DNA of 32,000 bases from Candidatus Auribacterota bacterium (GTDB taxonomy: Bacteria > Auribacterota > UBA6266). Within the stretch, counting starts at the first letter, position 1; each line of letters opens with the position of its first letter. The notes under the pieces are model-generated. The model made no database searches, was not told where the DNA came from, and was given only the letters and a program-made list of their open reading frames with translations. Shown here piece by piece: positions 1 through 25,360 of this stretch. Position numbers and translations under genes: made by a program. The stretch covers positions 1 through 32,000 of the forward strand of contig JAGLRQ010000023.1 of assembly GCA_023136205.1 (NCBI GenBank), in the 5' to 3' direction.

Positions 1-230
1 ATTTCTATAATTGCCGGAGCATGTTCCCGCGAAGAACCAAGCCCAAAATTATTTCCACCTACAACAAAGTCACCTTTTTCCATAGACGCGGCAAATTCCG
101 GACGGGCATCTTCCAGAACATGTTTCGCGAGTTGGGGCAAATCAGACCTCAAATGAAATAATCGTCCCGGAGCAATGTGGTCCGTGCTTATGTCATCTCC
201 AAAAATCCAGGCTTTACCATTTAGTTTCAT
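1..230 (-). CDS. leuD: Isopropylmalate/(homo)aconitate-type dehydratase small subunit (LeuD-like). Only the N-terminal part is present because the gene runs off the left edge.
   Basis: Reverse translation from the ATG at 230-228 gives MKLNGKAWIFGDDISTDHIAPGRLFHLRS...GGNNFGLGSSREHAPAIIE, the LeuD/aconitase swivel-domain signature. It starts 13 nt after the large-subunit stop. It is absent from the ORF track because the window truncates it. Confidence 0.85.
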   Translation of the reverse strand, partial: MKLNGKAWIFGDDISTDHIAPGRLFHLRSDLPQLAKHVLEDARPEFAASMEKGDFVVGGNNFGLGSSREHAPAIIE

Positions 231-243
231 TTACACACCTTGT

Positions 244-1497
244 TTATAAAAATTCTCTCGGATCAGTAATTTTACCGGTTATCGCAGTTGCGGCACATGT
301 ATGAGGTGAAGCAAGAAAAATATTACCTTTAACATTTCCCATGCGCCCGCGGAAATTCCTGTTCTGGGATGATAAGCAATTTTCTCCATCTCCAAGTATT
401 CCCTGATGAACACCCACGCAAGGGCCGCAGCCGGGAGGATTAATTACCGCACCTGCTTCCACAAGCGTTGTAATAATACCTTTTCTAATTGCTTCAAGAT
501 AAATTGACCTTGACGCAGGTGTTACTAAAAGCCTTGTCTTTTTATTCGCTTTTTTCCCTTTTAAAATTTTTGCCGCAATTTCCAGATCTTTCAGCCGGCC
601 GTTTGTACAGGTACCAATATGTACCTGATGAATCACAATATCTTTAATCGCACTAATCTTTTTAGTATTATCTACTGTATGCGGCAATGACACCATTGGC
701 TCAAGATCACTGACATTTATCCTGAATTCCTTTTCATATACGGCATCTGAATCCGCTTTAATCTCCTTAAAATCCTTTTCTCTTCCAACTGATTTAAGAT
801 ACCTTTTTGTAATATCATCAGAAGCAATCAAACCAACCTTGGCGCCGGCTTCAACAGCCATATTAGAAATAGTAAATCTGTCACTCATATCAAGGTTCTT
901 TATAGTTGAACCTGTAAATTCCAGAGCTTTATAAGTAGCTCCATCAGCGCCAATAACACCTATAAAGTAAAGTATGACATCCTTTGAACACACTCCTTTT
1001 TTAAAATCACCTTCACATATAATTTCAAAGGTTTCCGGAACCCTGAGCCAGGTTTTTCCAAGAGCTATACCTACCGCAACATCTGTAGAACCCATCCCCG
1101 TTGAAAACGCGCATAATGCTCCTCCTGTACATGTATGAGAGTCAGCGCCGATAAGGATATCTCCGGGCTTCACCAGTTTTTCGTTTATTAACTGATGGCA
1201 CACGCCCTCCCCAATATCTGAAAGAGCCACACCGGTAGATTCAGAAAACTCTCTTAAGAGGTTATGGTCATTTGAAAGTTCTTTTCTCGGGCTCGGAGCA
1301 GCATGGTCAATAAATAGAATCGTCTTATCAGGATTGGCAGCCTTAACAAGATTCATTTTTTTGAGCTGTGTTACAGCAAGCGGGCCCGTCCCATCCTGGG
1401 TAAGGCAAACATCTACCGGCACAACAACAATTTCCCCGGGACAGACATTTTTACCGCAGTGTTCACTAATAATTTTTTCGGATATTGTTTTTCCCAT
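244..1497 (-). CDS. leuC: Isopropylmalate/(homo)aconitate-type dehydratase large subunit (LeuC-like, short archaeal-type form)
   Basis: Aconitase-family motifs are present: DHAAPSP, GADSHTCTGGA, and Fe-S ligand regions GTCTNGR and CGPCVG. I place the start at the internal Met (MGKTISEKIISEH), which matches the usual family N-terminus and sits 4 nt after the upstream stop at 1502. The track start at 1539 would overlap the upstream gene by 38 nt. Confidence 0.88.
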   Translation of the reverse strand: MGKTISEKIISEHCGKNVCPGEIVVVPVDVCLTQDGTGPLAVTQLKKMNLVKAANPDKTILFIDHAAPSPRKELSNDHNLLREFSESTGVALSDIGEGVCHQLINEKLVKPGDILIGADSHTCTGGALCAFSTGMGSTDVAVGIALGKTWLRVPETFEIICEGDFKKGVCSKDVILYFIGVIGADGATYKALEFTGSTIKNLDMSDRFTISNMAVEAGAKVGLIASDDITKRYLKSVGREKDFKEIKADSDAVYEKEFRINVSDLEPMVSLPHTVDNTKKISAIKDIVIHQVHIGTCTNGRLKDLEIAAKILKGKKANKKTRLLVTPASRSIYLEAIRKGIITTLVEAGAVINPPGCGPCVGVHQGILGDGENCLSSQNRNFRGRMGNVKGNIFLASPHTCAATAITGKITDPREFL

Positions 1498-1501
1498 ATT
1501 A

Positions 1502-3310
1502 TTATTCCACGGTTTCTTCGTATTTAACAAGATCTTCAAATTTCATATCCATGCCAAGGATACCGATTATTTTGTCAGACTCATCCACGATAGGGGCCGA
1601 TACTGTTATGCAAAGCCTGCCGGTTATCTTTGAGGTATAGAAATCTGTTACACAGGGTTTACCGTTTTTCATCGGCTCAACAAACCACTGCCTTCCGGAA
1701 TAATCCTTTTCATGCAAAAGCGTTTCATATTTATTTCTATCTGCTATATCAGATATATTTTTAGTGAATTTCTTTCCATTGCTATCAACAACATAAGCAA
1801 ACTGGATAAAAGGATCTTCTTCCACAACCTTTTCAAGCATAGATTCGATTTCAGACACATTCATACGCTGAAGTTCTTTCCTGCCGGCATAATCTTCTAC
1901 CAAATGCAAAGCTACTTCTTCAGCCCTGAGCTTCAAATTATCAAAATCAGATTTAAAGTATTCGGAAAGATATTTTTTGCCTTTTACAATCATTTCTTCA
2001 GGCGAAATTGAAGTGATTCTTCCCTTCTCGTAATCTTTCATTATACTCTCAAATATTCTCTTTACACCGGGATGCCTTTTATCCACCTTCATATTTTCAT
2101 TCAGGCTCAGATAAGTATTAAACCAGTGCACAATCCCGGCAACCCCCGATTTATCCGTAACAACAATTTCAATCGGCCGGTTAAGTATTTTAGCAGTATC
2201 AAAAATATTATAGATCTCTTCGTTTTTCGAAACACCGTCGGCATGGATTCCCGCGCTTGTTGTATTAAAAGTTTTGCCCACAAACGGATAATTTGAAGGA
2301 ACGCCGGCATTTATTTCATCTCTAAAATAATTACCTATATGCGTTATAGTTGTTGTATCCATTCCGTCTGCAGTCCCTTTCAGCTGCATATATTCAATAA
2401 CAGCTCCTTCAACGGGACAATTACCTGTTCTTTCCCCAAAACCAAGCAGGCTTCCGTTTAAATAACCGCACCCGTAAAGCCATGCTGCTACAGAATTTAC
2501 AAGAACCTTATGAAAATCATTATGTCCATGCCATTCAAGGAGATCACTCGGCACACCAGCTTCTTTACGAAATACTTCCACAAGTTTTGGGACACCCCTG
2601 GGCAACGCAGCCTCAGGATAAGGAAGCCCATAACCCATTGTGTCGCACAGGCGAATTTTAATCGGTATATTTGCTTCCTCGCTCATCTGCATCAACTTTT
2701 GCGCAAAAGGAAGTGCAAAACCATAGATATCGGCTCTGGTAATATCTTCAAAGTGACATCTGACACGGATACCATCCGAAAGCGCTGTTTCAACAATATC
2801 AACATATTGTTCAAATGCCTTTTTCTTATCAAGCTTCAATTTAAGGTATATATGATAATCAGAGGCTGAAGTCAAAATACCTGTCTCCTTAAGGCCCATT
2901 TCCCTTACCAGCTGAAAATCTTTTTTTACCGCTCTTATCCAACCGGTAATCTCTGGATATTTAAATCCTTTTTCCTGTAATTTTTCAACAGCTTCTCTGT
3001 CTTTATTACTGTAGAGGAAAAATTCGGAGGTCCGGATAATACCATTCGGGCCGCTAAGACGGCTCAAAAGAGTGAAGATATCTATAATTTGTTTTACCGT
3101 ATAAGGAGGCCTTGCCTGCTGGCCATCCCTGAATGTGGTATCACTAATGTATATTTTCTCAGGCATGTTCAGTTTCGCCGCTTGTTTATCAAACAAAATC
3201 TTAGGAACATTCGAATAAGGAAAATACTCCCTGAAAAGTTCAGGTTTTTCCTGGTTTTTAAGCTGAAATTTCTTATAATTTTTACCAAACAGTTTTATTA
3301 TATCGCTCAT
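1502..3310 (-). CDS. HMGL-like 2-oxoacid:acetyl-CoA Claisen-condensing synthase (LeuA/NifV/CimA/Re-citrate-synthase superfamily) with a C-terminal Cache/PDC-like domain
   Basis: The N-terminal TIM barrel shows DTTFRDGQQA, CHFEDITRAD, and HGHNDFHKVLVNS (metal His-x-His). The last ~130 aa (FAYVVDSNGKK...YSGRQWFVEPMKNGKPCVTDFYTSKITGRLCITVSAPIVDESDKIIGILGMDMKFEDL) match the Cache/PDC consensus pattern rather than a LeuA_dimer regulatory domain. An SD-like AGGGAGAA precedes the ATG. Confidence 0.8.
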   Translation of the reverse strand: MSDIIKLFGKNYKKFQLKNQEKPELFREYFPYSNVPKILFDKQAAKLNMPEKIYISDTTFRDGQQARPPYTVKQIIDIFTLLSRLSGPNGIIRTSEFFLYSNKDREAVEKLQEKGFKYPEITGWIRAVKKDFQLVREMGLKETGILTSASDYHIYLKLKLDKKKAFEQYVDIVETALSDGIRVRCHFEDITRADIYGFALPFAQKLMQMSEEANIPIKIRLCDTMGYGLPYPEAALPRGVPKLVEVFRKEAGVPSDLLEWHGHNDFHKVLVNSVAAWLYGCGYLNGSLLGFGERTGNCPVEGAVIEYMQLKGTADGMDTTTITHIGNYFRDEINAGVPSNYPFVGKTFNTTSAGIHADGVSKNEEIYNIFDTAKILNRPIEIVVTDKSGVAGIVHWFNTYLSLNENMKVDKRHPGVKRIFESIMKDYEKGRITSISPEEMIVKGKKYLSEYFKSDFDNLKLRAEEVALHLVEDYAGRKELQRMNVSEIESMLEKVVEEDPFIQFAYVVDSNGKKFTKNISDIADRNKYETLLHEKDYSGRQWFVEPMKNGKPCVTDFYTSKITGRLCITVSAPIVDESDKIIGILGMDMKFEDLVKYEETVE

Positions 3311-3327
3311 TTTTATATTTATTCTCC

Positions 3328-3648
3328 CTATTTAATTGATTCTTCTATCCATTGTTTAAGTTTCGGTTTCTGCATCGCTCCTGAAGTTTGATTCTTAATT
3401 TCCCCTGCTTTAAAAAGAATCAGCGTGGGAACACTCATAACATTATACATTGCCGCCGCCGCGCGGCAGTCATCAACATCTGCTTTCACAAAGACAACTT
3501 CCTGCATTTCTCCCGACAATTCCTCAAAGAGAGGGGCTATCATTTTACACGGCATACACCACTCAGCAGAAAAATCAACCACAACAGGCTTAGAATTTTT
3601 CAGCACCTTTTCTTCAAAATCATTTTCTATCACATGAATTACAGCCAT
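3328..3648 (-). CDS. trxA: Thioredoxin with a variant WCMPC active site
   Basis: The translation VVDFSAEWCMPCKMIAP...SVPTLILFKAGE is a thioredoxin fold signature. I prefer the ATG at 3648 (MAVIHV...) because the GGGAGA SD is about 6 nt upstream of it. The track ATG at 3654 overlaps that SD. Confidence 0.9.
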   Translation of the reverse strand: MAVIHVIENDFEEKVLKNSKPVVVDFSAEWCMPCKMIAPLFEELSGEMQEVVFVKADVDDCRAAAAMYNVMSVPTLILFKAGEIKNQTSGAMQKPKLKQWIEESIK

Positions 3649-3804
3649 AATCATCTCCCGTTTTTTAACATATTAATCTGAAAATCGAGTGGTAATGTTA
3701 GCATTTCAGCATTTAAAAATGCAACAAAAATCAAAGAAACAGCTTTACCTTCCTCTCAAATTTGTGCAAAATAGCTAAAAAATACAAGTACAAGGAGGAA
3801 GTAA

Positions 3805-4383
3805 GTGTTAAAAAGACCTATTTGCATATTACTTATTTTATTTGCCAGCAGTATTGCTTTTGGTATTGATCTCCCTTTCAATGTTTATACCGATTATAAT
3901 GCTCAGGACAATCACTATGTCCCTTCCGGCTGGATGGGAGATGTCGGGGCAATAACACTTAATCAAAATTGTAAGGAAAATACCCATTCCGGAAAATTCT
4001 GCATCAAAATTGTTTATACAGGCGAAAGCACCAATGGCCAGGGGTGGATAGGAATCTACTGGCAGAATCCTGCAAATAACTGGGGAAATTCAAGAGGCGG
4101 ATACAATTTGACAGGGTCACAAGCACTCGAAATCCGGGCACGCAGTGAAAAAGACGGCAGTATTGTAGAATTCAAAATGGGCGGAATTGAAGGAGATTTT
4201 CCGGATACTCACACAGGAGCGACGGGCCCGGTTACATTAACAAAAGAATGGAAAAAATATATCATAGATCTATCCGGTGCCGACTTAAGCTATATCAGCG
4301 GCGGGTTCTGCCTTACAATGACGCAGATAAACAATCCTAACGGCGCTGTCATTTATTTAGACGATATAAGATATGTGAAATAA
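3805..4383 (+). CDS. Small secreted protein with a carbohydrate-binding-module-like beta-sandwich
   Basis: GTG start preceded by AAGGAGGA. The N-terminus is a signal peptide (MLKRPICILLILFASSIAFG). The rest is rich in Trp, Gly and Asn (GWIGIYWQNPANNWGNS...LTKEWKKYIIDL...IYLDDIRYV), which resembles CBM/jelly-roll modules. No catalytic motif is seen. Confidence 0.6.
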   Translation: MLKRPICILLILFASSIAFGIDLPFNVYTDYNAQDNHYVPSGWMGDVGAITLNQNCKENTHSGKFCIKIVYTGESTNGQGWIGIYWQNPANNWGNSRGGYNLTGSQALEIRARSEKDGSIVEFKMGGIEGDFPDTHTGATGPVTLTKEWKKYIIDLSGADLSYISGGFCLTMTQINNPNGAVIYLDDIRYVK

Positions 4384-4404: not shown

Positions 4405-7400
4405 TTATTTTTTATAATAAATATCTATCTTCGCCGGCAATTCAAAAAACTTTATTTCCGAATCTGTATCCGTGTTTTTATAGTTTTGGCCATTAAGCAT
4501 TATCTGTTCAACTCTGTTCGCCTTAGAGACTTTAAAAACAAAACCGCCTGGCGGAGATTCCGCGTCTCCGCTAAAACGCGCTTTTAAAATTTCTTTTTCT
4601 TTCTTAAGACTATAACTTATATCTCCGTAATAGGTATGTAAACCTTTTACCGAAACACCTTCTTTTAGCCAGGTATCGTCTATACCCACACCTAATATCA
4701 ACTGCTTGTTCTGTTCACAGACAAACAAACTCCTTACCGCGTTTAAATACTCAGCGCCGATCCAGGTATGGGGCATATCCCCCAGATAAAACGGAGGCCG
4801 ATAACCGGTATCAATTACCTCGGCCCACTGATTCCATGCTATAGGCTGACGATGTTTCAGCAGATATTTTAATGTATCAAGGGCCCGGATTTTCTGTCCC
4901 ATATAAGCAAAAGCTGCAGCATTTCTTATTTCATAAGGCCCGAAAATAAATCTTGAGGCCGCGCTGGTAAACATCCTTTTTTTCAACTCAAAATAATATT
5001 TACTAAAGGTATTATTTGTTTGCGGCTGAGGCAAGTTCGGCAATTCGTTACAGTATATAATCGCACAAGCCGTGGACGCGGGGTCATAATCAGCTTTTTC
5101 AACGCAACCGGGCACATAGTCTATATTTTTTGTTTTTATGACCATGTCTATCGACTTATAAACTGATTTTTTAAGTTTGTCATATTCTTTTTGAGCCCAT
5201 TGAGCCAATTCATCCTCCTCCAGGGCCTGGGCAATTTTTACACCGGAACGCCAGCCTTCCAAGGCCCAGAAATTGTCCCAATATGAATGAACTGGAGGGA
5301 TATATCCTTCGTGGCTGATAGAATCCGGGAGTATCCCATAAAATACTTTCTTTTCAGTCGCCTCATATTCAGGGGTGAGCCTCTGACTTCTTAAATAGAC
5401 CAGATACTCCAGGGCCTTAACTACATTAGGCAATTTGTTTTTAAGCCACGTTTTATCTTTTGTAAAAACATAATATTGAAAAACAGTAAATATAAACTCA
5501 CCCTGGCTGTCATATTCATCGACAATTTCCGGGCCTTCTTTCATGCGTACAATGGGCGGGATTTCACCGGTCTCATATTGATAGCCCGTATACCAGTCAA
5601 TGAATTCCTTCGCTTCATCAACTAACCCCAGCTTCAGGAAAAGAGAACTGACAATACCGCCATCGCGTATCCAGGCCTTATCATAATTCCTTGGGCCCGG
5701 CTGTAAACTGGGGCCGTCTTTGGTTATGAGATTATAGGCAATATTAGACTTGAAAGTATTTATCATATCCTTATCAGGGATATTTATTTCAATTTTATTT
5801 ACCTTTGATTTCCAGAAATCAACATTTTCCTGGAACATTTTTTTAATTTTAGCGCTGATTTGACTTTCCTTCATATTTATATTTAAATGCGGATCTTTAT
5901 CATGAAACGGTATAGCTATAAAATAATCTTTTGACTCTCCTGGTTTAAGTGTATAGCTATACTCTAGAGCTCCGGAAGCATCCCAGTCAACAGGATCCCA
6001 ATCAGGACATTGGGCTAAATCTTTGTTAGGAGGCAAAACTCCTTTTTGGATGACATTAACAATATCTCCTTCAGGCAGATCATCAACTTGTATCATTCCC
6101 GGCTGAGAACCAAAATCAACAGGCTTTATTAAGGGAAAAATTTTATATTTTTGGTTAACTTCAACGGTATAATTTTTATACTGGATATTGTAAATTGGTG
6201 AAAACCCGCCTTGCTCCTCACACGGCCACCAGGGCGGGTATATCTGAAAAGGACGTATGGCCAAAAATAACTTGCCCGTAACTGTTTCTTTGCGGTCATT
6301 TTTGATATTATACCAGGCATAAGCGCTGGATTCACCGGGCTTGCCATAGGCAAATAATTTTATCTGCATGGTGATATCTTTATAATCCCATTTTACCAAA
6401 GGCAAAGGCAGGTATTCGTTTTCCAGAGACTGGGTCACTGCCACGTCTTCTCGGGTAATCAGTTTATTATCCAGGTATAAGAATGGCATAATAGAAAAAC
6501 CCTGTTTATGAGGTTCTATAGTCCCGTCTTCACCGAAAAGCGCTTCGTTATGGTCATCTGCTACTCCAACTATAGTCCAGTAACCCTGCTCTTTGGATAA
6601 CCATCGGGGATAATATCCCAGAGGAGATTCCTGTCCGGCCAGCTCGTATTTCGCTTTTAGAGAGCCGGCCTCTGCAGGGTCTTTGATTTCTATTTCTTTT
6701 ATACTAAAACTGTTTTCAAGAGCGCTCTTATTTAATTTTATCCTGACCCGCTGTGTCTGTGTTTCCCAGAAATATATCTTATCTCTGCCCCCATTACCTT
6801 TGGTTTGAGTATAAACAGTAAACCAGTCTATCCCATCATCAGACAAAGCAACATCATAAGACTGGGCATAGTTCTCACCCCAATAAATAAACAACCCGGC
6901 GATCTCCTTTTGTGTCTGAAAATTTATTTCAAGCCACTGTTTATTCTCCTGATTACTCTGCCAAACAGTATCCATACGGCCGTCTGTAATGTTTTCCGCA
7001 TCACCAGAGGAAGAAGAAGCCTGAGTCAAAACCCCTTCATCCGCTTCTTTAATTGAGACTTCATATAATTCATATCCATAAGGCAAACTTCTTTTTTTAG
7101 CCGATACTTTAAGGAAGCCTGCCTTTATTTTCTCAAAATATATATCATCAACCACCCCGTCTGAATCCAGGGCAGTATAAACTACATGCCATTTCTTTTT
7201 ATCTTCTGAAACCAGAATATCGTATTGCTTGGCATATGTCTTGCCCCAATGCAGCCTGAGGCCGGTCAATGTCCTGGGTTTATCCAAACCAATTTCCAGC
7301 CATTCCAGCTCTGAAGATTTACTCTTCCATAATGTCTCTGTATTCCCGTCTACAGCACATGCGGCTTTATGTTGACTGTCCTCAAAAGAAGAGGCCTTGG

Positions 7401-7995
7401 CTTCCACCTTAATATTGCTGGCCTTTTTTTCAAACCCAACAAAGGATAGTTCATCAATATCTATATACCCTTTTCCTCCTTCACCGCAGGAGATAGCAAA
7501 TTCGATTTTTTTTATTTCTTTTAAATCTCCTCTCGGGCCAGGGCCCCAGCCGTAGGCCACATTCCTTTTGTTCAAAACTATCTTCTGCCAATTTGGAGAG
7601 AACTTAAAATTATCCCATTTCTTCCAATAGGTATTTCCCTTATCATCAATTAATTTAAATTCAAGATTGTTGTCAGGCGTTATGCCTCTAACATAAAATA
7701 TGAACTTATAGTTTTGGGGCAACGAAATAGAAACGTCTTTGGTTATAATTACATGACCTTTGCGTTTACTAAAATCAAAGTTAACCCGTATAGCTTTGTC
7801 TTCAAAACCCTGACTGGAAGTCAATTCAATTTCTGTTTTTTCCGACTTTGATTCTACCCAGTCATGAATTTCGTTAAAATCATCAAGCGTTTTCTTAATA
7901 TTCTGCTGTGCGCTTACATCAGCATGGGCGAATAAAAAGAACGTCCAAATAAAAATCGATATGATTCTAATCAATCCGTTAAATTTTTTCACCAC
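4405..7995 (-). CDS. Large secreted multidomain protein: CBM-like module, two F5/8 type C (discoidin) domains, and a C-terminal GH15/glucoamylase-like (alpha/alpha)6 domain
   Basis: A signal peptide is present (IISIFIWTFFLFAHADVSAQ). Two discoidin-like repeats are seen (AVDGNTETLWKS...WLEIGLDKP...LRLHWGKTYAKQYDILVSEDKKKW and ITDGRMDTVWQS...WLEINF...LFIYWGENYAQSYDVALSDDGIDW). The C-terminal region contains NYDKAWIRDGG, typical of GH15-like barrels. The start is one of two tandem GTG codons (7995 or 7992) after AAGGAG. Confidence 0.75.
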   Translation of the reverse strand: MVKKFNGLIRIISIFIWTFFLFAHADVSAQQNIKKTLDDFNEIHDWVESKSEKTEIELTSSQGFEDKAIRVNFDFSKRKGHVIITKDVSISLPQNYKFIFYVRGITPDNNLEFKLIDDKGNTYWKKWDNFKFSPNWQKIVLNKRNVAYGWGPGPRGDLKEIKKIEFAISCGEGGKGYIDIDELSFVGFEKKASNIKVEAKASSFEDSQHKAACAVDGNTETLWKSKSSELEWLEIGLDKPRTLTGLRLHWGKTYAKQYDILVSEDKKKWHVVYTALDSDGVVDDIYFEKIKAGFLKVSAKKRSLPYGYELYEVSIKEADEGVLTQASSSSGDAENITDGRMDTVWQSNQENKQWLEINFQTQKEIAGLFIYWGENYAQSYDVALSDDGIDWFTVYTQTKGNGGRDKIYFWETQTQRVRIKLNKSALENSFSIKEIEIKDPAEAGSLKAKYELAGQESPLGYYPRWLSKEQGYWTIVGVADDHNEALFGEDGTIEPHKQGFSIMPFLYLDNKLITREDVAVTQSLENEYLPLPLVKWDYKDITMQIKLFAYGKPGESSAYAWYNIKNDRKETVTGKLFLAIRPFQIYPPWWPCEEQGGFSPIYNIQYKNYTVEVNQKYKIFPLIKPVDFGSQPGMIQVDDLPEGDIVNVIQKGVLPPNKDLAQCPDWDPVDWDASGALEYSYTLKPGESKDYFIAIPFHDKDPHLNINMKESQISAKIKKMFQENVDFWKSKVNKIEINIPDKDMINTFKSNIAYNLITKDGPSLQPGPRNYDKAWIRDGGIVSSLFLKLGLVDEAKEFIDWYTGYQYETGEIPPIVRMKEGPEIVDEYDSQGEFIFTVFQYYVFTKDKTWLKNKLPNVVKALEYLVYLRSQRLTPEYEATEKKVFYGILPDSISHEGYIPPVHSYWDNFWALEGWRSGVKIAQALEEDELAQWAQKEYDKLKKSVYKSIDMVIKTKNIDYVPGCVEKADYDPASTACAIIYCNELPNLPQPQTNNTFSKYYFELKKRMFTSAASRFIFGPYEIRNAAAFAYMGQKIRALDTLKYLLKHRQPIAWNQWAEVIDTGYRPPFYLGDMPHTWIGAEYLNAVRSLFVCEQNKQLILGVGIDDTWLKEGVSVKGLHTYYGDISYSLKKEKEILKARFSGDAESPPGGFVFKVSKANRVEQIMLNGQNYKNTDTDSEIKFFELPAKIDIYYKK

Positions 7996-13051: not shown

Positions 13052-14638
13052 TTACTTGCTTTTTTTCTGTTTTTCTTCGTCTTTGAAAAGCTTATACTCA
13101 ACACTGTCAACCAACGCTTCCCAGCAGGCTTCAATAATATTTTCAGAAACCCCTACAGTTCCCCAGATATCTTTGCCGTCTGTTGATTCAATAAGAACCC
13201 TTACCTTCGCGGCCGTCCCGGATTTCGCATCCAGGACCCTCACCTTGAAATCCGTCAAACGCACATCGGCTATCCGCGGGTAGAAAGGAATAAGGGCTTT
13301 TCTCAAAGCGCCGTCAAGAGCATTTACAGGCCCGTCTCCTCCGGCAGCAGTATGCTCCGATTTTCCTTCAACCGAGACTTTTATTGTCGCTTCAGAGATA
13401 AGTTTCTTATCCGCTCTTTTTTCATCCACCACCCTAAACCCCTCAAGATCAAAAAAGCTCTTATGCTTGCTAAGGGCCTTTTTCATAAGTATCTCAAATG
13501 ATGCTTCGGCAGCTTCAAATTCATATCCTTTTCTTTCCATCTCCTTGAGGCTTTTTAAAATCTTTTTTGCTTCGGGAGATTTATCACCGACGTCAAGCCC
13601 GTATTCAATGGCTTTTAAAAGAACATTGCTCTGCCCTGAAAGATCAGAAACAAGAATTCTTCTTCTGTTACCCACCTGTTCCGGCCGAATGTGTTCATAA
13701 CTTGTCTGCTCTTTCTGAACAGCATTTACATGGACACCGGCTTTGTGGGCAAAAGCACTGTCACCGACATACGGCATCTTATTGTTATGGCGGAGATTCG
13801 CAAGCTCATCAACAAACTTTGAAGCTTCAGTGAACTGTTTAAGCTGCGCGTCCGTAACGCAATCAATTCCCATTTTCAATTTAAGCGAGGGAACAATTTC
13901 ACAGAGATTCGCGTTACCGGTTCTTTCTCCATAACCGTTCATTGTCCCCTGAACCTGAACCGCGCCCAATTCTACCGCGGTAAGAGAATTTGCCGTAGCA
14001 ATCCCGGCATCATTGTGAACATGAATTCCCAGAGAAACTATTATATGCTTCTTAACAATTTCAATTATCTGCCCAAGCCTTGAACCAAGTGTCCCGCCGT
14101 TTGTATCACACAACACCAGACACTCGGCCCCCGCTTTTTCAGCGGTTATGAGAGTTTCAACGGCATAACCTTCATCCAGCTCAAACCCGTCAAAAAAATG
14201 TTCCGCGTCGTAAAAAACAGTTTTTCCCTGATCTTTCAGATACTTAACGGAATCATAAATCATAGCCAGGTTTGTTTGCCTGTCAACCTTTAAAACCTTT
14301 TCAACATGAAGTACAGAACTTTTTCCAAAAATAGTAACCACCGGAGTCCGCGCTTCAATAAGGGCAAGGATGTTAGGATCCTCTTCAACCTTATTCTTGG
14401 CTCTTCGAGTACTCCCGAAAGCGGCGATCCTGGCATTCTTCAATTTAACTTTCCTTATAGAATTGAAAAATTCCATATCTTTAGGATTGGAACCCGGCCA
14501 ACCCCCTTCAATATAGACAATACCTATCTCGTCAAGTTTTCCGGCTAACCGCAGTTTATCCGCCACGGAAAACGCGACACCTTCCGCCTGTGTTCCGTCC
14601 CTAAGAGTGGTATCGTAGATTTCAACTGTTTTTTTCAT
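13052..14638 (-). CDS. cimA: (R)-citramalate synthase (LeuA-family with a LeuA_dimer C-terminal domain)
   Basis: The translation contains [30 protein letters not shown], and a C-terminal regulatory domain ([22 protein letters not shown]). The length and N-terminus match the CimA-type subfamily as I recall it. Discriminating it from LeuA needs a profile search. Confidence 0.8.
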
Positions 14639-15866
14639 TTTTTAACACCTTGTTTTTACCGGGTTTAAAAACCTCATGAAGAACCTGCACGGCCTTTTTA
14701 GCATGTTTCCTTTCTATAATACATGAAATTTTTATTTCCGATGTACTTATCATTTCAATATTAATTCCGGCATCAGCCAGAGTCTTAAACATTAAAGCCG
14801 CGACACCGGGATGACTTTTCATGCCGACACCAACTATTGATACCTTTGCTATTTCATCATCACATTTTATGCCCGAAGAACCAACGCCCCCGACCACGTT
14901 CTTTATAACCTCATCCGCTCTGGCAAGCTCGTCCCTTTTCAACGTAAAGGATATATCGGTTTTGCCTTGTTCACTAACATTCTGAACTATAACATCAACA
15001 TTAACATTAGACTCGGCAAGAGCGCCGAACACCTTGGAAGCAATTCCCGGCTTGTCAATAACCTCAACAATCGTTATCTTGGCTTCATCGGTATCAGATG
15101 TTACTCCAACAACTACAGGATCTTCCATATCTCCAATCTCCTCAGTTATTAATGTTCCTTCATCTTTAACAAAACTCGACCTTACGTGAATTTTAACACC
15201 ATATTTTTTACCGAACTCGACGGCCCGAAGCTGCAAAACCTTCGCGCCCAGGCTCGCAAGCTCCAGCATTTCGTCATATGACACCCTGTCAATTTTCTCA
15301 GCACCCTTCACAACCCTGGGGTCAGCCGCAAAAACACCGTCCACATCAGTGTATATCTCACAAACATCGGCCTTCATCGCGGAAGCCAGAGCAACGGCAG
15401 TGGTATCAGACCCTCCTCTCCCAAGGGTTGTAATATTGCCGTTCTCATCAATTCCCTGGAACCCCGCGACAATAATAATATTGCCTTTGCCCAGCTCTTC
15501 CTTCAACTTATCGGAAGAGATATCAAGTATTCTGGCTTTCCTGTGAGCGCTGTCAGTATAAATACCCACCTGGCTGCCGGTAAGTGAAATCGCTTTCTCT
15601 CCGAGACTATGTATCGCCATCGTAAGCAAAGCGGATGATATCTGTTCACCGGTAGACAGAAGAGCATCCATTTCTCTTTCAGAAGCATTTTCTGTTATTT
15701 CTTTTGTCAGGGCTATAAGCTCGTCAGTGGTTTTCCCAAGCGCGGAAACCACAGCTATAACTTCATTGCCTTCTTTCTTCGTCTCAACAATCCTTGCCGC
15801 GACATTTTTTATTCTATCAGGATTAGAAACCGAACTGCCTCCGTACTTCTGAACAATCAACGCCAT
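14622..15866 (-). CDS. lysC: Aspartate kinase (monofunctional, with ACT domains)
   Basis: The translation contains [26 protein letters not shown], and two C-terminal ACT repeats. It overlaps the cimA start by 17 nt. Confidence 0.95.
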
Positions 15867-15868
15867 AT

Positions 15869-17068
15869 TTAAATCTCCACAAAATATTCCATTAACTTAT
15901 GCCCCGCTTCAAATTTCCTGCATGGGGATTCACAACATTTTTCTTCATATTTTTTACAGCCGCAAGCATCAATACCCGAACCGCACATGCAGAAAGGAAC
16001 AAGGTCTCTCGTATGCGTTTTAAGAGACACAGGCGTCGCGTGATCACAAAGAAAAAGCATCCTGAAATCTCCCTGTTTAACAAGGTAATCATAAACAGGT
16101 TTTACTATCTTTTTATCAATGTTTTCTATTGCTTTTATTTTCTCCCTTACATCGCCGTTGTGCCCCGCCTCGTCAGGAGCTTCAATATGAATAAATAAAA
16201 GGTCTTTTTCCGAAAGCGCTTTTATAGCATACGATGCTTTTCCTTCATAATTAGTATCGTAATACCCCGTCGCGCCCGGAACATTTATCACATCCATTCC
16301 TAAAGCTTTACCAATGCCTTTCAATAAATCTACCGCGGAGATTATCGCGCCGCTCAAGGCGAACTTTTCTTTAAAAAGAGGAATCCGGGGAAGCTTGCCC
16401 GCCCCCCACAGCCATATCATATTAGCAGGGTTCTCACGCAGGTCAACCCTTACCGAATTGATATCACTATCTTTTAAAACGTCAACAGACTCCCTCATAA
16501 GTTTTTTCAAAAACCCGGACCCCTTCCCCAAAGGAAGGTTAGGTTCAATGGGTTTGCCTGATATATCATGAGGAGGAACACATTTTAAATGTTTCGCGTC
16601 CGAACCCAGAACATCTTTTGAAATAATCAAAAGATGCCTGTAACTTACTCCCGCGCAAAATCTTAAACCTTTACGGCCAAGTTTTTCATTAAGATACTCA
16701 ATTATTATTTTCGCTTCTTCGGTTTTTATATGCCCGGCGCTGTAATCGGACATAATGCCGTTATCAACAGTAGTAAGATTGCACCTGAAAGCAATCTCAT
16801 CTTTTTTAAGTTCGATATTTTTGCTTAAAGCTTCAAAAGGGCCTCTTCCCGTATAGTATTTCCTGGGGTCATAGCCTAAGATAGACATATTGGCAATATC
16901 GCTTCCGGGCTCAAGGCTGTTGGGTATGGTTTTAACACTCCCGCATAAGCCTTCACAAGCAATACGGTCAATATTGGGTTTCTTCGCAACCTGGAGAGGC
17001 GTTTTTCCTCCAAGTTCCTCTACTCCGTAATCGGACATACCGTCGCCGACTATTACAGCATATTTCAT
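15869..17068 (-). CDS. ApgM-type cofactor-independent phosphoglycerate-mutase-like protein; its position suggests the non-canonical homoserine kinase analog
   Basis: The translation shows metalloenzyme superfamily motifs (VIVGDGMSD, EAPDEAGHNGD, DHATP). It sits between thrC and lysC, and no thrB is present in the operon. The C-terminal tail is unusually Cys-rich (FCMCGSGIDACGCKKYEEKCCESPC). Confidence 0.8.
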   Translation of the reverse strand: MKYAVIVGDGMSDYGVEELGGKTPLQVAKKPNIDRIACEGLCGSVKTIPNSLEPGSDIANMSILGYDPRKYYTGRGPFEALSKNIELKKDEIAFRCNLTTVDNGIMSDYSAGHIKTEEAKIIIEYLNEKLGRKGLRFCAGVSYRHLLIISKDVLGSDAKHLKCVPPHDISGKPIEPNLPLGKGSGFLKKLMRESVDVLKDSDINSVRVDLRENPANMIWLWGAGKLPRIPLFKEKFALSGAIISAVDLLKGIGKALGMDVINVPGATGYYDTNYEGKASYAIKALSEKDLLFIHIEAPDEAGHNGDVREKIKAIENIDKKIVKPVYDYLVKQGDFRMLFLCDHATPVSLKTHTRDLVPFCMCGSGIDACGCKKYEEKCCESPCRKFEAGHKLMEYFVEI

Positions 17069-17092
17069 GAAAGTTTCTCCGATATCCGCGTC

Positions 17093-18142
17093 CTAAAAAA
17101 TTAAATCAATAACCTTTTTAACATCTGCTTCACAGGATACAGGTTCCTTAACGGATTTTATAGCACGGTCAGGATCTTTAAGGCCGTGGCCGGTAAGAGT
17201 ACAGGTTATTACCCCGCTGTTAAAATATCCCTCGTTTATCTTCTTTATCATTCCCGCAACCGAAGCAGCCGAAGCAGGCTCGCAAAAAACACCTTCTTCC
17301 GCAAGCATCTTATACGCTTCAAGAATTTCATCATCAGTAACAAGATCTATCAAACCGCCCGATTCATCCCTCGCCGCTTCCGCCTGTTTCCAGCTCGCGG
17401 GATTACCAATCTTTATGGCTGTCGCAATGGTTTCAGGTTTTTTGATTACATGTCCCCGGACAATCGGCGCGGAACCTGCCGCCTGAAAGCCAAGCATTAC
17501 CGGTTTGCGGCTTGTTTTTTTCTCTTTAAAATACTCGCAATATCCCATCCAGTAAGCAGTAATATTACCGGCATTCCCGACTGGTATCGCATGATAAACA
17601 GGGGCATCCCCCAGAAAATCACAGATTTCAAAAGCCGCGGTTTTCTGTCCCTGTATTCTGTACGGATTAAGCGAATTCACAAGAGTTATCGGATATTTAG
17701 ACGTAATCTCCTTAACCATTTCCAAAGCATCATCAAAATTCCCTTTTACAGCAATTACCTTTGCACCGTGAATAAGCGCCTGAGCAAGTTTACCCAGAGC
17801 AATCGCCCCTTCCGGAATAAGAACAACACATGTAATAGCGGCTCTGGAAGCATAAGCTGCCGCGGACGCCGAGGTATTACCGGTCGAAGCGCACATAACA
17901 GCTTTTGAACCTTCCTCCACGGCTTTAGAAACAGCCATAGTCATGCCCCTGTCTTTAAACGAACCGGTAGGATTCGCACCGTCAAATTTAAGGTATACCT
18001 TAAGCTTCCCCTTTGAAAGCCCTGACAGTCTGTCTGAATAAATCAGAGGAGTATTCCCCTCGTTCAGCGTAACAACCGGGGTTTTTTCCGTGACAGGTAA
18101 ATATTTTTTATATTTATCTATAAGGCCTTTCCAGTATTTCAT
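17093..18142 (-). CDS. thrC: Threonine synthase
   Basis: The PLP-Lys motif (NPTGSFKDRG) is present, and overall length and motifs fit the short ThrC form. It abuts the hom stop. Confidence 0.93.
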   Translation of the reverse strand: MKYWKGLIDKYKKYLPVTEKTPVVTLNEGNTPLIYSDRLSGLSKGKLKVYLKFDGANPTGSFKDRGMTMAVSKAVEEGSKAVMCASTGNTSASAAAYASRAAITCVVLIPEGAIALGKLAQALIHGAKVIAVKGNFDDALEMVKEITSKYPITLVNSLNPYRIQGQKTAAFEICDFLGDAPVYHAIPVGNAGNITAYWMGYCEYFKEKKTSRKPVMLGFQAAGSAPIVRGHVIKKPETIATAIKIGNPASWKQAEAARDESGGLIDLVTDDEILEAYKMLAEEGVFCEPASAASVAGMIKKINEGYFNSGVITCTLTGHGLKDPDRAIKSVKEPVSCEADVKKVIDLIF

Positions 18143-19434
18143 TACCTTCCTCCCACTCTGTACACAACGGTTTTAGCTTTAACCATGCCAAGGTTATCAA
18201 TAAGCTTAACAGCTTTTTGTACATCCTTTTCACAGGCCTTATGAGTCATAACAACTATCGGAACAGCACTTCCCTTGTTTCTTTCTTTCTGAATAACAGA
18301 GGAAATACTTATCTGGTTTTTACCGAGAACCCCTGCAATTTTTGAAAGAACACCGGGCTTATCTATTACCCTGAACCTGAAATAATACTGGCTCCGAATT
18401 TTACCCATAGGTTTAACTTTCTTTCTGCTGTTGGGAAAATCAAGAATAAACGGTTTTGATTTACCCGATAGAATATTGCGGGAAATATCAAGAATATCCG
18501 AGACAACGGCGCTTGCGGTCGGTTTCTCCCCGGCCCCTAATCCATAATAAAGGATGTTACCCACAAAATCACCTTCAACCAGCACCGCATTGTAAGCCGC
18601 ACTAACCGCGGCAAGCATGCTTTTTTCCTTTACCATAACAGGAGTCACACTGACTTCAATTCCGTCCTGCTTCTCCTTATAAACCGCAAGCAGTTTAATT
18701 ACCAGCCCGAGCTCCCTTGCATAGTCTATATCTATCTGCTCAACATTCTCTATGCCCTTGACATAAATATCTTTTAAGTCAATCCATTTACCCGAAGCAA
18801 GAGACGCCAGGAGAGCAATTTTATGAGCTGAATCCATACCTCTAACATCAAGTTTCGGGTTCGCTTCAGCATAACCTTCTTTTTGAGCAGCTTTTAATGC
18901 TTCCCTGTAAGAAATCCCCTCATCCCGCATCCTCGATAAAATATAATTGGTGGTTCCGTTAATAATCGCGTGGATAGAATAAATCTTATTAGCCGCCAGG
19001 CCTTCTCTCAATCCTTTTAATACCGGAATTCCACCGCCGACACTCGCTTCAAAAAATATCTCAGAATTATTTTTCGCGGCATGTTCGAAAAGCTCTTTGC
19101 CGTGTTCAGCAAGAAGGGCTTTGTTCGCGGTCACAACCCTTTTGCCTTTTGAGAGAGCCTTCTTTATAAATTCTTTCGCGGGATGAATTCCCCCAATAAG
19201 CTCAACAACAATATCAATAGAATCATCTTCCAATATCAAATCAGGATTGGAAACAAGCATCCCTTTTGCAAGTTTTATCCCTCTGTTTGATTTGATATTC
19301 TTATCAGCCACTTTTACCAGTTTAACAGAAATACCAATCTTTTTACTGAAAGCAGCACTGTTCTTAAGAAGATTTTTAACAACTCCCTTTCCAACCGTTC
19401 CAAAACCAATTATTCCAACATTTATTTTCTTCAT
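18142..19434 (-). CDS. hom: Homoserine dehydrogenase with a C-terminal ACT domain
   Basis: The translation shows a Rossmann motif (GIIGFGTVGKGV), a catalytic region (NGTTNYILSRM...EADP..DV.G.D.A.K), and an ACT tail (YYFRFRVIDKPGVLSKIAGVLG). Confidence 0.93.
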   Translation of the reverse strand: MKKINVGIIGFGTVGKGVVKNLLKNSAAFSKKIGISVKLVKVADKNIKSNRGIKLAKGMLVSNPDLILEDDSIDIVVELIGGIHPAKEFIKKALSKGKRVVTANKALLAEHGKELFEHAAKNNSEIFFEASVGGGIPVLKGLREGLAANKIYSIHAIINGTTNYILSRMRDEGISYREALKAAQKEGYAEANPKLDVRGMDSAHKIALLASLASGKWIDLKDIYVKGIENVEQIDIDYARELGLVIKLLAVYKEKQDGIEVSVTPVMVKEKSMLAAVSAAYNAVLVEGDFVGNILYYGLGAGEKPTASAVVSDILDISRNILSGKSKPFILDFPNSRKKVKPMGKIRSQYYFRFRVIDKPGVLSKIAGVLGKNQISISSVIQKERNKGSAVPIVVMTHKACEKDVQKAVKLIDNLGMVKAKTVVYRVGGR

Positions 19435-21949: not shown

Positions 21950-22771
21950 TCATAGTTTGTCTATAAAATTCAGCGCTTCTCTTAGGACTTTTCCATCACA
22001 CAAACCATGACCCATCCCCGGAACGTCAATTAATTTGGCATTGAATTTCTTTTTGGTATAACCATTGTGGTATACATCCAGTATATCCCCATGCCGCCAA
22101 TCAGATTTTCCCGTAATTAATACGAATTTTACATTCCTTTTAGCCCTGTTAGAATGTGTTGGTTTAGGAATATCATATGCATATTCACCGTTAGTTGTTG
22201 AATATGTTTGCTTAACTTTTTTATAAAAGTTTGCCCCGCAAATAGGTATAGCACCTGAGAACAAATCGGAATGTAAAAAAGCCAGAGTAGAAGCAGTTCG
22301 ACCTCCTCCTGACAAACCGGAGATATAAATCCTATCCCTGTTTACCTTAAACATCTCCATCATTTTATAGACACCTACCACAGTCAAACTCATCCTATGG
22401 TCAATATCATGATTGTTGCCCACTCTTTGCGGAGCAATAAAAAGAAGTTGCTTTTCTTTTATGATATTTTTCCAACTCGCCGGAATTTTCATATTGTCAT
22501 CCGAATTAATAAATGCCAGAACTCCAAACGGTTTTGTACCATCATAGTTTTTAGGGACGTAAATATAAAATTTCTCGTTTTTCAAAGTATAAGAATAATT
22601 CAAATAAGAATGCTTCTTTTTAACCTTTGGCAATTTACCTTTAAAGGAATGAACTGTATCCATCTCTGAGAAAACCAATGAGGAAAGAATAAAATACACA
22701 CCTAAAAAACTTAGGCAGGGAGAAACAAGTTTATTCATTTTCTTAATACTTATCACTTTTATTGCATTCAT
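21950..22771 (-). CDS. Secreted alpha/beta-hydrolase (esterase / PHB-depolymerase-like family)
   Basis: The translation has a hydrophobic N-terminus, a nucleophile elbow (GLSGGG), and a C-terminal GMGHG His. An AAGGAG SD lies 8 nt upstream of the ATG. Confidence 0.7.
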   Translation of the reverse strand: MNAIKVISIKKMNKLVSPCLSFLGVYFILSSLVFSEMDTVHSFKGKLPKVKKKHSYLNYSYTLKNEKFYIYVPKNYDGTKPFGVLAFINSDDNMKIPASWKNIIKEKQLLFIAPQRVGNNHDIDHRMSLTVVGVYKMMEMFKVNRDRIYISGLSGGGRTASTLAFLHSDLFSGAIPICGANFYKKVKQTYSTTNGEYAYDIPKPTHSNRAKRNVKFVLITGKSDWRHGDILDVYHNGYTKKKFNAKLIDVPGMGHGLCDGKVLREALNFIDKL

Positions 22772-22826
22772 AACAGCATCTCCTTAGAAAGCTAACTCCG
22801 CACCTTATCGCTACACTATTTACTAC

Positions 22827-23360
22827 CTACCGGACTCTTTTTACAGTTAATATATCTGATGCAGTGTAATAAAATGGGAGATTCACAAATTTGCAACCTT
22901 CTTTAACGGCCTTATTGGGAAGAGCAAGAACAACTATTTGAAAGTCAACCCCTATACCCGCGCCTTCTTTTTCTCCGATATAAATTCCGCCCTCAAATCT
23001 ACCATCCTGAGATACCACAGGCTTTGATTGTGCCCACCACCATTTGACGTGAGAAAGCGGCTTTACAAAAGGGACTAACTCCACTTGCTTTTCCTGCAAG
23101 GCAAGGTTAACTCTCGAATTAGATTCAACCTGCGCCGCCGTAGTGCGAAAATCAACATTCCCGCTAATTTTCACTATATAACCGGATACCTCAGCGCCAT
23201 TTTCAGGTTCTGAAAGTTTAACATTTATTATCCAATTCTTAGCCATAGAAGCGAGTTTCTCAACTCGCTTAACCCGCAGAAAAGTATAAATAGATATAAT
23301 AGAGGCAAAAATACCCAGGATTAGCCCGGACGAGCTAACAATTTCCCATAATTTCATCAT
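22827..23360 (-). CDS. Hypothetical N-terminally membrane-anchored protein with a beta-rich extracytoplasmic domain
   Basis: One TM helix is present (SSGLILGIFASIISIYTFL). It is followed by an Ig-like-looking segment (KLSEPENGAEVSGYIVKISGNVDF). I recognise no family. Confidence 0.55.
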   Translation of the reverse strand: MMKLWEIVSSSGLILGIFASIISIYTFLRVKRVEKLASMAKNWIINVKLSEPENGAEVSGYIVKISGNVDFRTTAAQVESNSRVNLALQEKQVELVPFVKPLSHVKWWWAQSKPVVSQDGRFEGGIYIGEKEGAGIGVDFQIVVLALPNKAVKEGCKFVNLPFYYTASDILTVKRVR

Positions 23361-23544
23361 ATTTTCTATCCCTATCCCAATTTAAATAAAAACAGTCTGG
23401 TTCCAACACAATTAAACGGTAAATTGGTTAATTATTTAATCACCAATTAACCATTCACCGTTTTAAACGACCTGTCCACAATTATTGAACGAAGTTTGAG
23501 TTTATTTTGAAAACAATTTCCATCCTTGTCCCGTTTCGCGGGAT

Positions 23545-23874
23545 TTATGAATCAAGAGGATTAAAATTATCTCTTTTTTGCTTAATTCTTAGTTCAACAC
23601 TTCGATTTATCTTCTCTTTTGTTTCTTCACCTATATGCGTAAACTTCAACTTATTAATCATTTCTTTCAAATTATGTTCTAAAACCAGTTTTCCAAAAGC
23701 TTCATCAAGAAAAGAAGGAGTCACAAGTTTAACTCCCTCAAAGGACACTTCAATATCACCCTTATCCCAATTTTCAAGAACCATCTCCCTGATAGCTTGC
23801 CCACCCTTCTTTTGAGGGCTATCAATTCGCTGAGAACAGTATTCGCCAATTATTTCTTGTATTTTTATCAACAT
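23545..23874 (-). CDS. DUF4325-like (STAS-like) small protein
   Basis: The 109-aa translation contains GQAIREMVLENWDKGDIEVSFEGVKLVTPSFLDEAFGKL. This matches my recollection of the DUF4325/STAS-like signature (xxF.GV..vtsSFldE.fG.L). An AAGGA SD is present. The start is 10 nt after the upstream GHKL gene stop. Confidence 0.65.
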   Translation of the reverse strand: MLIKIQEIIGEYCSQRIDSPQKKGGQAIREMVLENWDKGDIEVSFEGVKLVTPSFLDEAFGKLVLEHNLKEMINKLKFTHIGEETKEKINRSVELRIKQKRDNFNPLDS

Positions 23875-23884
23875 AAAACAATCC

Positions 23885-24817
23885 TTACCTAATTAACTTA
23901 TAATCTTCAGGAATAGGCTCTGACTTAAAAAATATCTTACTTCCCGGCTTGCTGTTTATTGTAGCATCAATGAAAGTTCCAGGGAATTTAAAATCCAGCC
24001 TTTCAATGTTTTTTACAACTTTTGATTTAGCCCCGCTATATGTAATTATCTCTTCATAAAACCCGTTACCGGAAATTATTATGAATTCTCCTCCAACAAA
24101 GTTAATAAACTCTCTAAACTCTGACAATCCAACTCCGGAATTTTCACGGCCTAAAGTTCCGGTTACCCCTCTAACTAAGGCTCTTTTAATTGCAAATGTA
24201 GAATCTAATTGTATCAAATCATTAAATTTTCTTGCTAAATGATTCTTTATGCCTATTCCCAAATCGCTTATGCAGACTCTTACTCTGTGAGTTTTTTGAT
24301 ATCCCTGCCCCAAAACAAAACAACCGGTTTTGGAACCACTATGCTGTTGAACATTTAAAATTAATTCAGCTAAACTTTCATGTATATGGTTACAAACATT
24401 AGAAGATAATTTTAATTCCTTTTCAATAATATTAATGAGCTGCTCTATTTCATAGTCATCAGGAAAATCAAACCGTCTAATTTTATAAATATACGTTCCA
24501 TTATGCTGCGGCGCCTTGCCATTCAAATAGGATTTAACTCCAACAAACTCACAAAAGCCGCATTCTGAAAGGAAATTTGATACTTCTTTGTCTTTTGGAT
24601 ATATATGGGATATCTTAGACTCTCGAACAGCCATTAAATATTTGCCCACCGCGGATAAAATATTTACACCAGAAGGATATATAAACTCTAATTCCGAAAA
24701 ATTCAGACAAATTTCTTCCCCATGTTCGACACTTAACATTTCTTTTATACAATTCATTACTTGTTTAGTGTCAGCATTTAAACCTAATCCGAATCTACCA
24801 GATAACTTTAATTCCAT
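23885..24817 (-). CDS. STAS-like N-terminal domain fused to a GHKL (RsbW/SpoIIAB-like) ATPase/kinase domain
   Basis: The N-terminal domain reads ICLNFSELEFIYPSGVNILSAVGKYL (STAS-like). The Bergerat-fold boxes are ESLAELILNVQQHS (N-box), ISDLGIGIKNHL (G1) and RENSGVGLSEF (G2). I prefer the ATG at 24817 (MELKLSG) over the GTG at 24841. Confidence 0.7.
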   Translation of the reverse strand: MELKLSGRFGLGLNADTKQVMNCIKEMLSVEHGEEICLNFSELEFIYPSGVNILSAVGKYLMAVRESKISHIYPKDKEVSNFLSECGFCEFVGVKSYLNGKAPQHNGTYIYKIRRFDFPDDYEIEQLINIIEKELKLSSNVCNHIHESLAELILNVQQHSGSKTGCFVLGQGYQKTHRVRVCISDLGIGIKNHLARKFNDLIQLDSTFAIKRALVRGVTGTLGRENSGVGLSEFREFINFVGGEFIIISGNGFYEEIITYSGAKSKVVKNIERLDFKFPGTFIDATINSKPGSKIFFKSEPIPEDYKLIR

Positions 24818-24858
24818 TTTTTTGCCTTTATAACAATGCACAAATTACAATAGCCCGC

Positions 24859-24886
24859 ATTATATGCAAAGTTTTGAAAAAAACAA
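24859..24886 (-). promoter_or_regulatory. Putative sigma70 promoter for the STAS-GHKL/DUF4325 pair
   Basis: The minus strand reads TTGTTT, a 16-nt spacer, then a perfect TATAAT. It lies ~40 nt upstream of the ATG at 24817. Confidence 0.45.
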
Positions 24887-25015
24887 ATAATTTATTATTC
24901 ATTTTTACCATTCTGCTTGCACCGTAATGAACTTTGCTTTACGTCAGGGGCTTGTGCAGAATAGCAAAATCTTTTCCCACCCCTTTTCCACTTCGCGGAA
25001 TTTGATGCAAATCGA

Positions 25016-25294: not shown

Positions 25295-25360
25295 CTTTTT
25301 TCCTTTTTGAGCTTTTACCTATTTTTTTATGTGATATTCTCAATCTCGATCCTCAATCTT

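Follow-up and report, generated by a model that had tools for sequence, protein, structure and literature searches.

Organization of the rcs locus

The locus described here lies in the window, a 32,000-nucleotide stretch (positions 1-32,000) of contig JAGLRQ010000023.1 from a Ca. Auribacterota genome (GCA_023136205.1). Its central gene, rcs, encodes a protein in which a DRE-TIM condensing-enzyme part (residues 52-452) is followed by a C-terminal tail, and it is flanked by genes for a thioredoxin and for a two-subunit dehydratase of the LeuC/LeuD type (Table 1).

Table 1. Features of the rcs locus, with positions given in the window.
Feature	Position	Strand	Basis
rcs, gene for a very probable long-form Re-citrate synthase, 602 aa, 68.9 kDa	1502..3310	-	ORF and orthology
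HMGL-like DRE-TIM catalytic barrel, residues 52-327	2330..3157	-	PF00682, E 3.9e-34; Foldseek to homocitrate/isopropylmalate synthases
RDGQQ catalytic-helix motif, residues 61-65	3116..3130	-	invariant in clade
HxH divalent-metal site, H261 and H263 (H261-G-H263)	2522..2530	-	sequence and homologue alignment
Helical subdomains after the barrel, residues 328-452, at whose end short-form homologues stop	1955..2329	-	weak HCS_D2 match; short-form C-termini
One cytoplasmic Cache/PDC module at residues 455-597, made up of a long first helix and a PAS-like core	1520..1948	-	Pfam, fold matches
Predicted ligand-pocket residues R540, W542, F543, Y558, S560, T563, T569, D588	1547..1693	-	conservation; PctA/KinD alignment
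LeuC/HacA-family large subunit, 417 aa, putative aconitase large subunit (acnL)	244..1497	-	profile matches, context
LeuD/HacB-family small subunit, 5' part, cut by contig end	1..230	-	profile matches; rest on contig C82
Thioredoxin, WCMPC active site, probably first operon gene	3328..3654	-	17 bp upstream of rcs

The start codon of acnL is the ATG at position 1497, 4 bp beyond the rcs stop, and the other half of the LeuD-like gene is found on contig C82, followed there by icd, fumA, fumB, and an nfnAB-like pair. The window contig and C82 are joined, across 55 bp, by a 538-kb contig that encodes an identical Rcs and carries the gene order trx-rcs-acnL-acnS-icd-fumA-fumB-nfnA-nfnB-pgm, and the same operon order recurs in relatives whose Rcs proteins are 77-78% identical. 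A promoter scan returned fewer sites than in shuffled sequence. The WCMPC thioredoxin gene (3328-3654, reverse strand) is also syntenic in relatives, and its product could serve oxygen-sensitive downstream enzymes. The nfnAB-like (SudAB/GltD-like) pair (L131:15287-17516) shares the operon with the NADP-isocitrate dehydrogenase (NADP-IDH) gene, which suggests that NADPH from IDH is coupled to transhydrogenation. Placed between rcs and icd, the LeuC/LeuD-type pair (1-1497, reverse strand) belongs to the two-subunit HacAB/LeuCD family and is apparently the only aconitase of the genome, where no other was found; similar two-subunit aconitases occur in Syntrophorhabdus-type loci (L021, L035, L049, L051). 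The small-subunit loop that distinguishes homoaconitase from LeuD carries a one-residue insertion here, and its alignment is ambiguous.

Further along the window, a single threonine/isoleucine cluster on the reverse strand (13052-19434) comprises hom, thrC, a phosphoglycerate-mutase-family gene of the 'proposed homoserine kinase' type (TIGR02535), an aspartokinase gene, and cimA, and continues into valS. The gene at 13052-14638 was originally described as a LeuA/CimA type with a LeuA_dimer domain; the domain is present, and the gene is CimA, not LeuA (TIGR00977, 767 bits against a cut-off of 450). A probably exported protein of 1196 aa with two F5/8 type C (CBM32-like) domains is encoded at 4405-7995 (reverse strand), its long C-terminal region having no Pfam match and reading as glycoside-hydrolase-like, and facing it at 3805-4383 (forward strand) is a gene for a 192-aa exported protein, also with no Pfam match. 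The region from about 22000 to 26400 is lower in GC (32-36%) and encodes a DUF4325 protein, an HNH endonuclease, and a number of proteins with no Pfam match; it is a possible small defence or mobile island. Elsewhere in the genome, nitrogenase genes (the start of nifH, the end of nifD, nifK, nifE, and parts of nifN and nifB) are located at the end of contig C23, on contig C64, and at the start of contig C54; the GC content of C64 is 45% against a genome mean of 39%, and the nif genes are either a recent acquisition or a binning error.

Assignment of Rcs to the Re-citrate synthases

The reading of the N-terminal part as a DRE-TIM synthase with an RDGQQ motif and an HxH metal site is borne out by the HMGL-like match in Pfam and by the invariance of RDGQQ and H261-x-H263 among 106 homologues. 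The identity of Rcs to solved LeuA, CimA, and homocitrate synthases is 20-26%, the closest among its named relatives are from Ca. Auribacterota, and NCBIfam holds no model for the Re-citrate synthase clade; structure searches found no solved Re-citrate synthase. Over 590 residues, including the tail, Rcs aligns gap-free (56% identical, 73% similar) with SYN_02536, which an exact sequence look-up returned as Q2LTE1, 'Citrate (Re)-synthase', of Syntrophus aciditrophicus SB (ABC77353.2). The identical sequence is listed as SYN_02536, an isolated Re-citrate synthase, in Table S1 of PMC12016533, which attributes the characterization to Kim et al. (2013, J Bacteriol 195:1689). The same Cache tail is present in Q2LTE1 (PDC_1 match, E 1e-11), and the mass computed for this protein minus its first Met and plus a Strep-tag is 72,890 Da. 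For the purified S. aciditrophicus enzyme, Kim and colleagues are said to have found a subunit mass of 72,892 Da in 2013, and if this value is right, its agreement with the computed mass indicates that the purified enzyme carried the tail.

Orthology and the operon together make it very probable that Rcs belongs to the Syntrophus/Clostridium kluyveri clade of Re-face citrate synthases and feeds the synthesis of 2-oxoglutarate and glutamate. Many anaerobic bacteria enter glutamate synthesis through this kind of enzyme. The gene is unremarkable within a known, characterized enzyme clade, and its architecture is not new: the counter-evidence that the original prediction had named, a characterized subfamily with this architecture, is half there, as the same arrangement is found in the purified S. 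aciditrophicus enzyme and is widespread, although no paper found mentions the Cache module. The original prediction had also left the substrate open among isopropylmalate, homocitrate, and Re-citrate, a choice in which orthology, the aconitase-IDH-fumarase operon, and separate LeuA, CimA, and leuCDB genes now point to Re-citrate.

The two other substrates merit consideration on their own evidence. The best NCBIfam match of Rcs is nifV (TIGR02660), the downstream dehydratase belongs to the HacA/LeuC family, and the assembled genome has fragments of nifH, nifD, nifK, nifE, nifN, and nifB yet lacks nifV, all of which would suit a protein that is, or doubles as, a homocitrate synthase for nitrogenase FeMo-cofactor or for the aminoadipate lysine route. 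Such a role is nonetheless very improbable, as the nifV score is 138 bits against a cut-off of 463, rcs is not nif-linked, the operon dehydrogenase exceeds the NADP-IDH cut-off and falls below the homoisocitrate models, and the genome encodes dapF adjoining lysA; nifV may moreover have escaped assembly, the nif cluster being broken up at three contig ends. Since the gene is kept in five same-family genomes that have no nifK match, homocitrate is unlikely to be the main product of Rcs. More improbable still is that Rcs makes isopropylmalate or citramalate, with its regulatory domain exchanged for another and the downstream LeuCD-like pair as partner, as family membership and the LeuC/LeuD-like neighbors might suggest. 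All LeuA and CimA models fall far under their cut-offs (the best LeuA model at 130 bits against 517, the CimA model TIGR00977 at 74 against 450), genuine LeuA, CimA, and leuCDB are located elsewhere in the genome, and icd, not leuB, comes after the LeuCD-like pair.

For Re-citrate synthesis, the preferred assignment, the wider genome provides a coherent setting. Three HMGL proteins are encoded (LeuA in an ilv cluster, CimA, and Rcs) along with two LeuCD pairs (the rcs-linked pair and one in a leuCDB-asd cluster), and a search for Si-citrate synthase gave no PF00285 match in the genome, which is 92.65% complete. Aconitase, IDH, or fumarase genes lie within 6 kb at 23 of 80 homologous loci, many of them cut short, and are mostly directly downstream. 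A biosynthetic horse-shoe TCA pathway has been described for Auribacterota (PMC9324843), and the Rcs operon and genome content fit this pathway.

A single Cache module at the C-terminus

The tail of Rcs exceeds the Pfam cut-offs of two Cache families, MCP-like_PDC_1 (PF22673; residues 488-594, E 5.8e-17, 62.6 bits against 27) and dCache_1 (PF02743; residues 450-594, 51.8 bits against 45), and the consensus from which a Cache module was originally recognized spans D509-L594. The dCache_1 profile is matched at positions 20-155 of 240 only, and Rcs ends after one module; a two-module dCache_1 architecture was rejected, the second PAS-like module being absent. AlphaFold models of full-length Rcs (pLDDT 91.7) and of the tail alone (pLDDT 92.3) are confident, the latter showing a helix at residues 455-475 and then a five-strand core. 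The best fold match to the tail is KinD (Z 15.7, rmsd 3.5, 135 aligned), with further matches to WalK (Z 15.0), Mlp24 (14.2), CitA (14.1), and YkuI (11.3). The modeling that had been proposed as a check for a PDC fold has in this way returned Cache/PDC sensors as the top fold matches. The position of the module at the tail stands as first described, and its extent does not: because the long first helix is part of the module, its start is put near residue 455, giving a length of ~143 aa in place of ~130 aa from ~470.

Rcs has no hydrophobic segment (maximum 19-residue Kyte-Doolittle mean of 1.07) and is on this ground soluble, in line with the cytoplasmic location originally given to the module. 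Unlike typical extracytoplasmic Cache receptors, Rcs has no signaling output domain in Pfam. A two-copy complex prediction for the tail (score 0.17) speaks neither for nor against pairing. LeuA_dimer (PF08502) is absent from Rcs, while the same Pfam search detects it in the gene at 13052-14638. The Cache module had been described as taking the place of LeuA_dimer; the absence is correct, but short members of the clade have no C-terminal regulatory domain of any kind, and the Cache tail is an add-on, not a LeuA_dimer replacement.

Distribution of long and short forms

The same three Pfam matches occur in all of the best 120 homologues. A chance fusion or assembly artefact was rejected, given an identical protein on three other contigs and thousands of homologues. 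Among Syntrophales, the match extends to residue 596-601 in 46 of 61 genomes searched; in the phylum Ca. Auribacterota, the gene is present in 32 of the 61 genomes searched (23 long, 9 short), and long forms also occur in records of Desulfovibrionaceae, Nitrospirota, Omnitrophota, Margulisbacteria, Lentisphaerota, and Spirochaetota. Short homologues stop close to the position equivalent to Rcs 452, at most a few residues away. In the catalytic-core tree, short and long forms are interleaved: the 139-row tree shows 7 changes and the 46-row tree 6, strong branches force at least four short/long changes, and a single short clade is rejected (AU p=0.00073, 46 rows). The Cache module is therefore dispensable for catalysis in the clade. 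A branch (support 95, 144 columns) separates the enzyme tails from chemoreceptor tails. The simplest reading is that a Cache module was fused once to the enzyme clade and then repeatedly lost, a direction suggested by the trees. The sampling was based on long-form queries and the trees are unrooted in practice (the branches to a LeuA/CimA root were very long, and that root was set aside), so they do not decide between loss and re-acquisition.

The long form is widely misnamed; its public names, among them histone-lysine N-methyltransferase, triose-phosphate isomerase, and cache domain-containing protein, are wrong or unhelpful, and short forms are publicly misnamed 2-isopropylmalate synthase. 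A homologue on a contig labeled Odoribacter splanchnicus (L089) nests in Desulfovibrio sequences (support 99), probably through bin contamination or transfer, and a clostridial-type short enzyme (P0292) contains an exact internal repeat of ~150 residues that is probably an assembly artefact.

The predicted ligand pocket and its relatives

In a profile alignment to solved sensors, R540, W542, F543, Y558, S560, and D588 of the tail align with R126, W128, Y129, Y144, D146, and D173 of PctA, and R540 also aligns with R131 of KinD, which has a Y-x-S-x-I-T-G stretch in common with Rcs. Across 139 enzyme tails, conservation reaches 97% for R540, 100% for W542, 89% for Y558, 100% for S560, 98% for T569, and 100% for D588, where the mean over the module is ~63%. 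In PctA, Y121, R126, and W128 bind the ligand's carboxyl group and Y144 and D173 bind the amino group, with the D173A substitution abolishing binding (PMC8915833). Four of the five dCache_1AA motif residues are kept in Rcs (the equivalents of R126, W128, Y144, and D173), and that of Y121 is missing, the position being K535 in Rcs and variable in the family, mostly E/D/S, by sequence alignment only. Lacking a Y121 equivalent and having serine (S560) in place of PctA D146, the Rcs tail is not a dCache_1AA member. The predicted pocket would instead be a hybrid, in which four amino-acid-motif residues are combined with the KinD-like Y-x-S-x-I-T-G, and it could work like a dCache_1AA sensor. Several of the conserved positions (W-F, G, T, and D) are at the same time part of the consensus of Cache folds at large, and their role may be structural.

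A profile search covering 1.8 billion representatives returned first fragments of the enzyme itself and then chemoreceptors in which a C-terminal Cache module lies behind the MCP signaling domain. These tails share the pocket residues but have E and Q where the enzymes have Q503 and K514, and since they keep the same pocket, its conservation may reflect common descent and not a need particular to enzyme control. The chemoreceptors with a single C-terminal Cache after the signaling domain make up a large family with a strongly conserved pocket (P0178, P0183-P0288), for which no characterization was found. Intracellular Cache domains are treated as a known minority in PMC4822843 and called rare in bioRxiv 2023.04.06.535858. 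Literature searches on citrate synthase with Cache, Cache with HMGL, and dCache with metabolic enzymes, carried out mostly outside the subscription literature, retrieved nothing relevant, and no study on what the tail does in the enzyme came to light.

A proposed allosteric role for the tail

The best explanation overall, and a reasonably probable one, is that Rcs is a Re-citrate synthase with the Cache module acting as a metabolite-binding allosteric domain. In this mechanism, the metal-dependent DRE-TIM barrel would condense acetyl-CoA and oxaloacetate to citrate, which the two-subunit aconitase and NADP-isocitrate dehydrogenase would take to 2-oxoglutarate for glutamate synthesis. The Cache module, kin to the C-terminal modules of chemoreceptors, would be a detachable ligand-binding domain that was fused once and lost several times. 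A small carboxylate-bearing metabolite would most likely be held by R540, W542, and S560, with Y558 and D588 placed for an alpha-amino group and K514 a candidate contact for the side-chain carboxylate of glutamate. The long first helix would then relay the signal to the post-barrel subdomains, and flux toward 2-oxoglutarate would be damped.

With a conserved predicted pocket and a detachable module, the idea of an allosteric sensor is plausible, and from the sequence evidence some effector probably binds the Cache module and exerts allosteric control. Glutamate or glutamine can be put forward as the ligand only tentatively, glutamate being the single best guess. For the broadest version, in which a chemoreceptor-derived Cache module, fused once to Re-citrate synthase, would be a true allosteric switch responding to glutamate or a 2-oxo acid across many anaerobic phyla, the balance is even.

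A module that is structural only, contributing to oligomerization, stability, or the docking of a partner (aconitase, thioredoxin) with no effector, is rather unlikely. The incomplete amino-acid motif, with no Y121 equivalent, would be in keeping with it, as would the frequent use of PAS-like folds as interaction domains, and the S. aciditrophicus enzyme is reportedly a homotetramer that needed GroEL for expression. However, the polar ligand-contact positions R540, S560, T569, and D588 are 97-100% conserved while surface positions are variable, and short forms (C. kluyveri) function without the module. Within the allosteric explanation, and counted in the probability given to it, is a variant in which the module would be a KinD-like sensor, responding not to an amino acid but to a small carboxylate or 2-oxo acid (pyruvate, 2-oxoglutarate, oxaloacetate). 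KinD ranks first among the structural matches and second among the sequence matches, shares the Y-x-S-x-I-T-G stretch, and has at the position of R540 the residue (R131) mutated in 4JGQ/4JGR, and the title of 4JGP is that of a pyruvate complex; but KinD has Gln at the D173 equivalent, where D588 is invariant in enzyme tails, and it is the PctA equivalent of D588 that binds the amino group and is essential for binding (PMC8915833). This variant is unlikely, somewhat more so than the structural role.

Little is known of how entry to glutamate synthesis is regulated in anaerobes with a one-way TCA branch. Enzymes that occur naturally with and without the tail, a clear-cut boundary between the domains, and a predicted pocket of defined residues offer a cheap and clean experimental system. 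If the allosteric explanation is true, DRE-TIM synthases would have in the tail their third kind of regulatory domain. It would also be a case, apparently undescribed in the literature found, of a Cache domain in control of a central-metabolism enzyme, and would bring a metabolic enzyme into the short list of intracellular Cache domains; the chemoreceptor C-terminal modules, having the same pocket, would be predicted to bind the same class of ligand.

Comparison with known systems

Among characterized enzymes, S. aciditrophicus Q2LTE1 shares with Rcs the RDGQQ motif, the HxH site, the Cache tail, and the same pocket residues, but comes from a different phylum, is 629 aa long with short extra ends, and is encoded by a gene alone between uvrD-like and aspS, whereas rcs lies in a TCA operon. 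C. kluyveri CKL_0973 (Li et al. 2007) is placed in the same clade by PMC12016533 and has the same N-terminal and barrel motifs in the sequence listed there; by reading of that error-prone, machine-read sequence, it is a short form that ends just past the 452 equivalent and has no Cache module. LeuA and CimA resemble Rcs in the DRE-TIM barrel, the post-barrel subdomains, a C-terminal domain in the same place, and the logic of end-product feedback, but differ in substrate, in sequence (~20-26% identity), and in a regulatory fold, LeuA_dimer, that is unrelated.

Precedents for a cytoplasmic Cache domain are YkuI_C and Diacid_rec (PMC4822843) and the stand-alone dCache_1AM of actinobacteria (bioRxiv 2023.04.06.535858); the intracellular cases in these texts are in or beside signaling proteins, with fusion to a central-metabolism enzyme not described among them. 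The dCache_1AA sensors PctA and Tlp3 (PMC8915833) are like the Rcs tail in the fold of the membrane-distal module and in the equivalents of R126, W128, Y144, and D173, and the sensor domain of B. subtilis KinD is like it in the R131 equivalent and Y-x-S-x-I-T-G. Compared with all three, the Rcs tail has one module, not two, has no membrane helices, and is fused to a metabolic enzyme, and it differs from PctA further in the missing Y121 equivalent and the serine for D146. The nearest non-enzyme relatives of the Rcs tail are the chemoreceptors with a C-terminal Cache, and the pocket is common to both.
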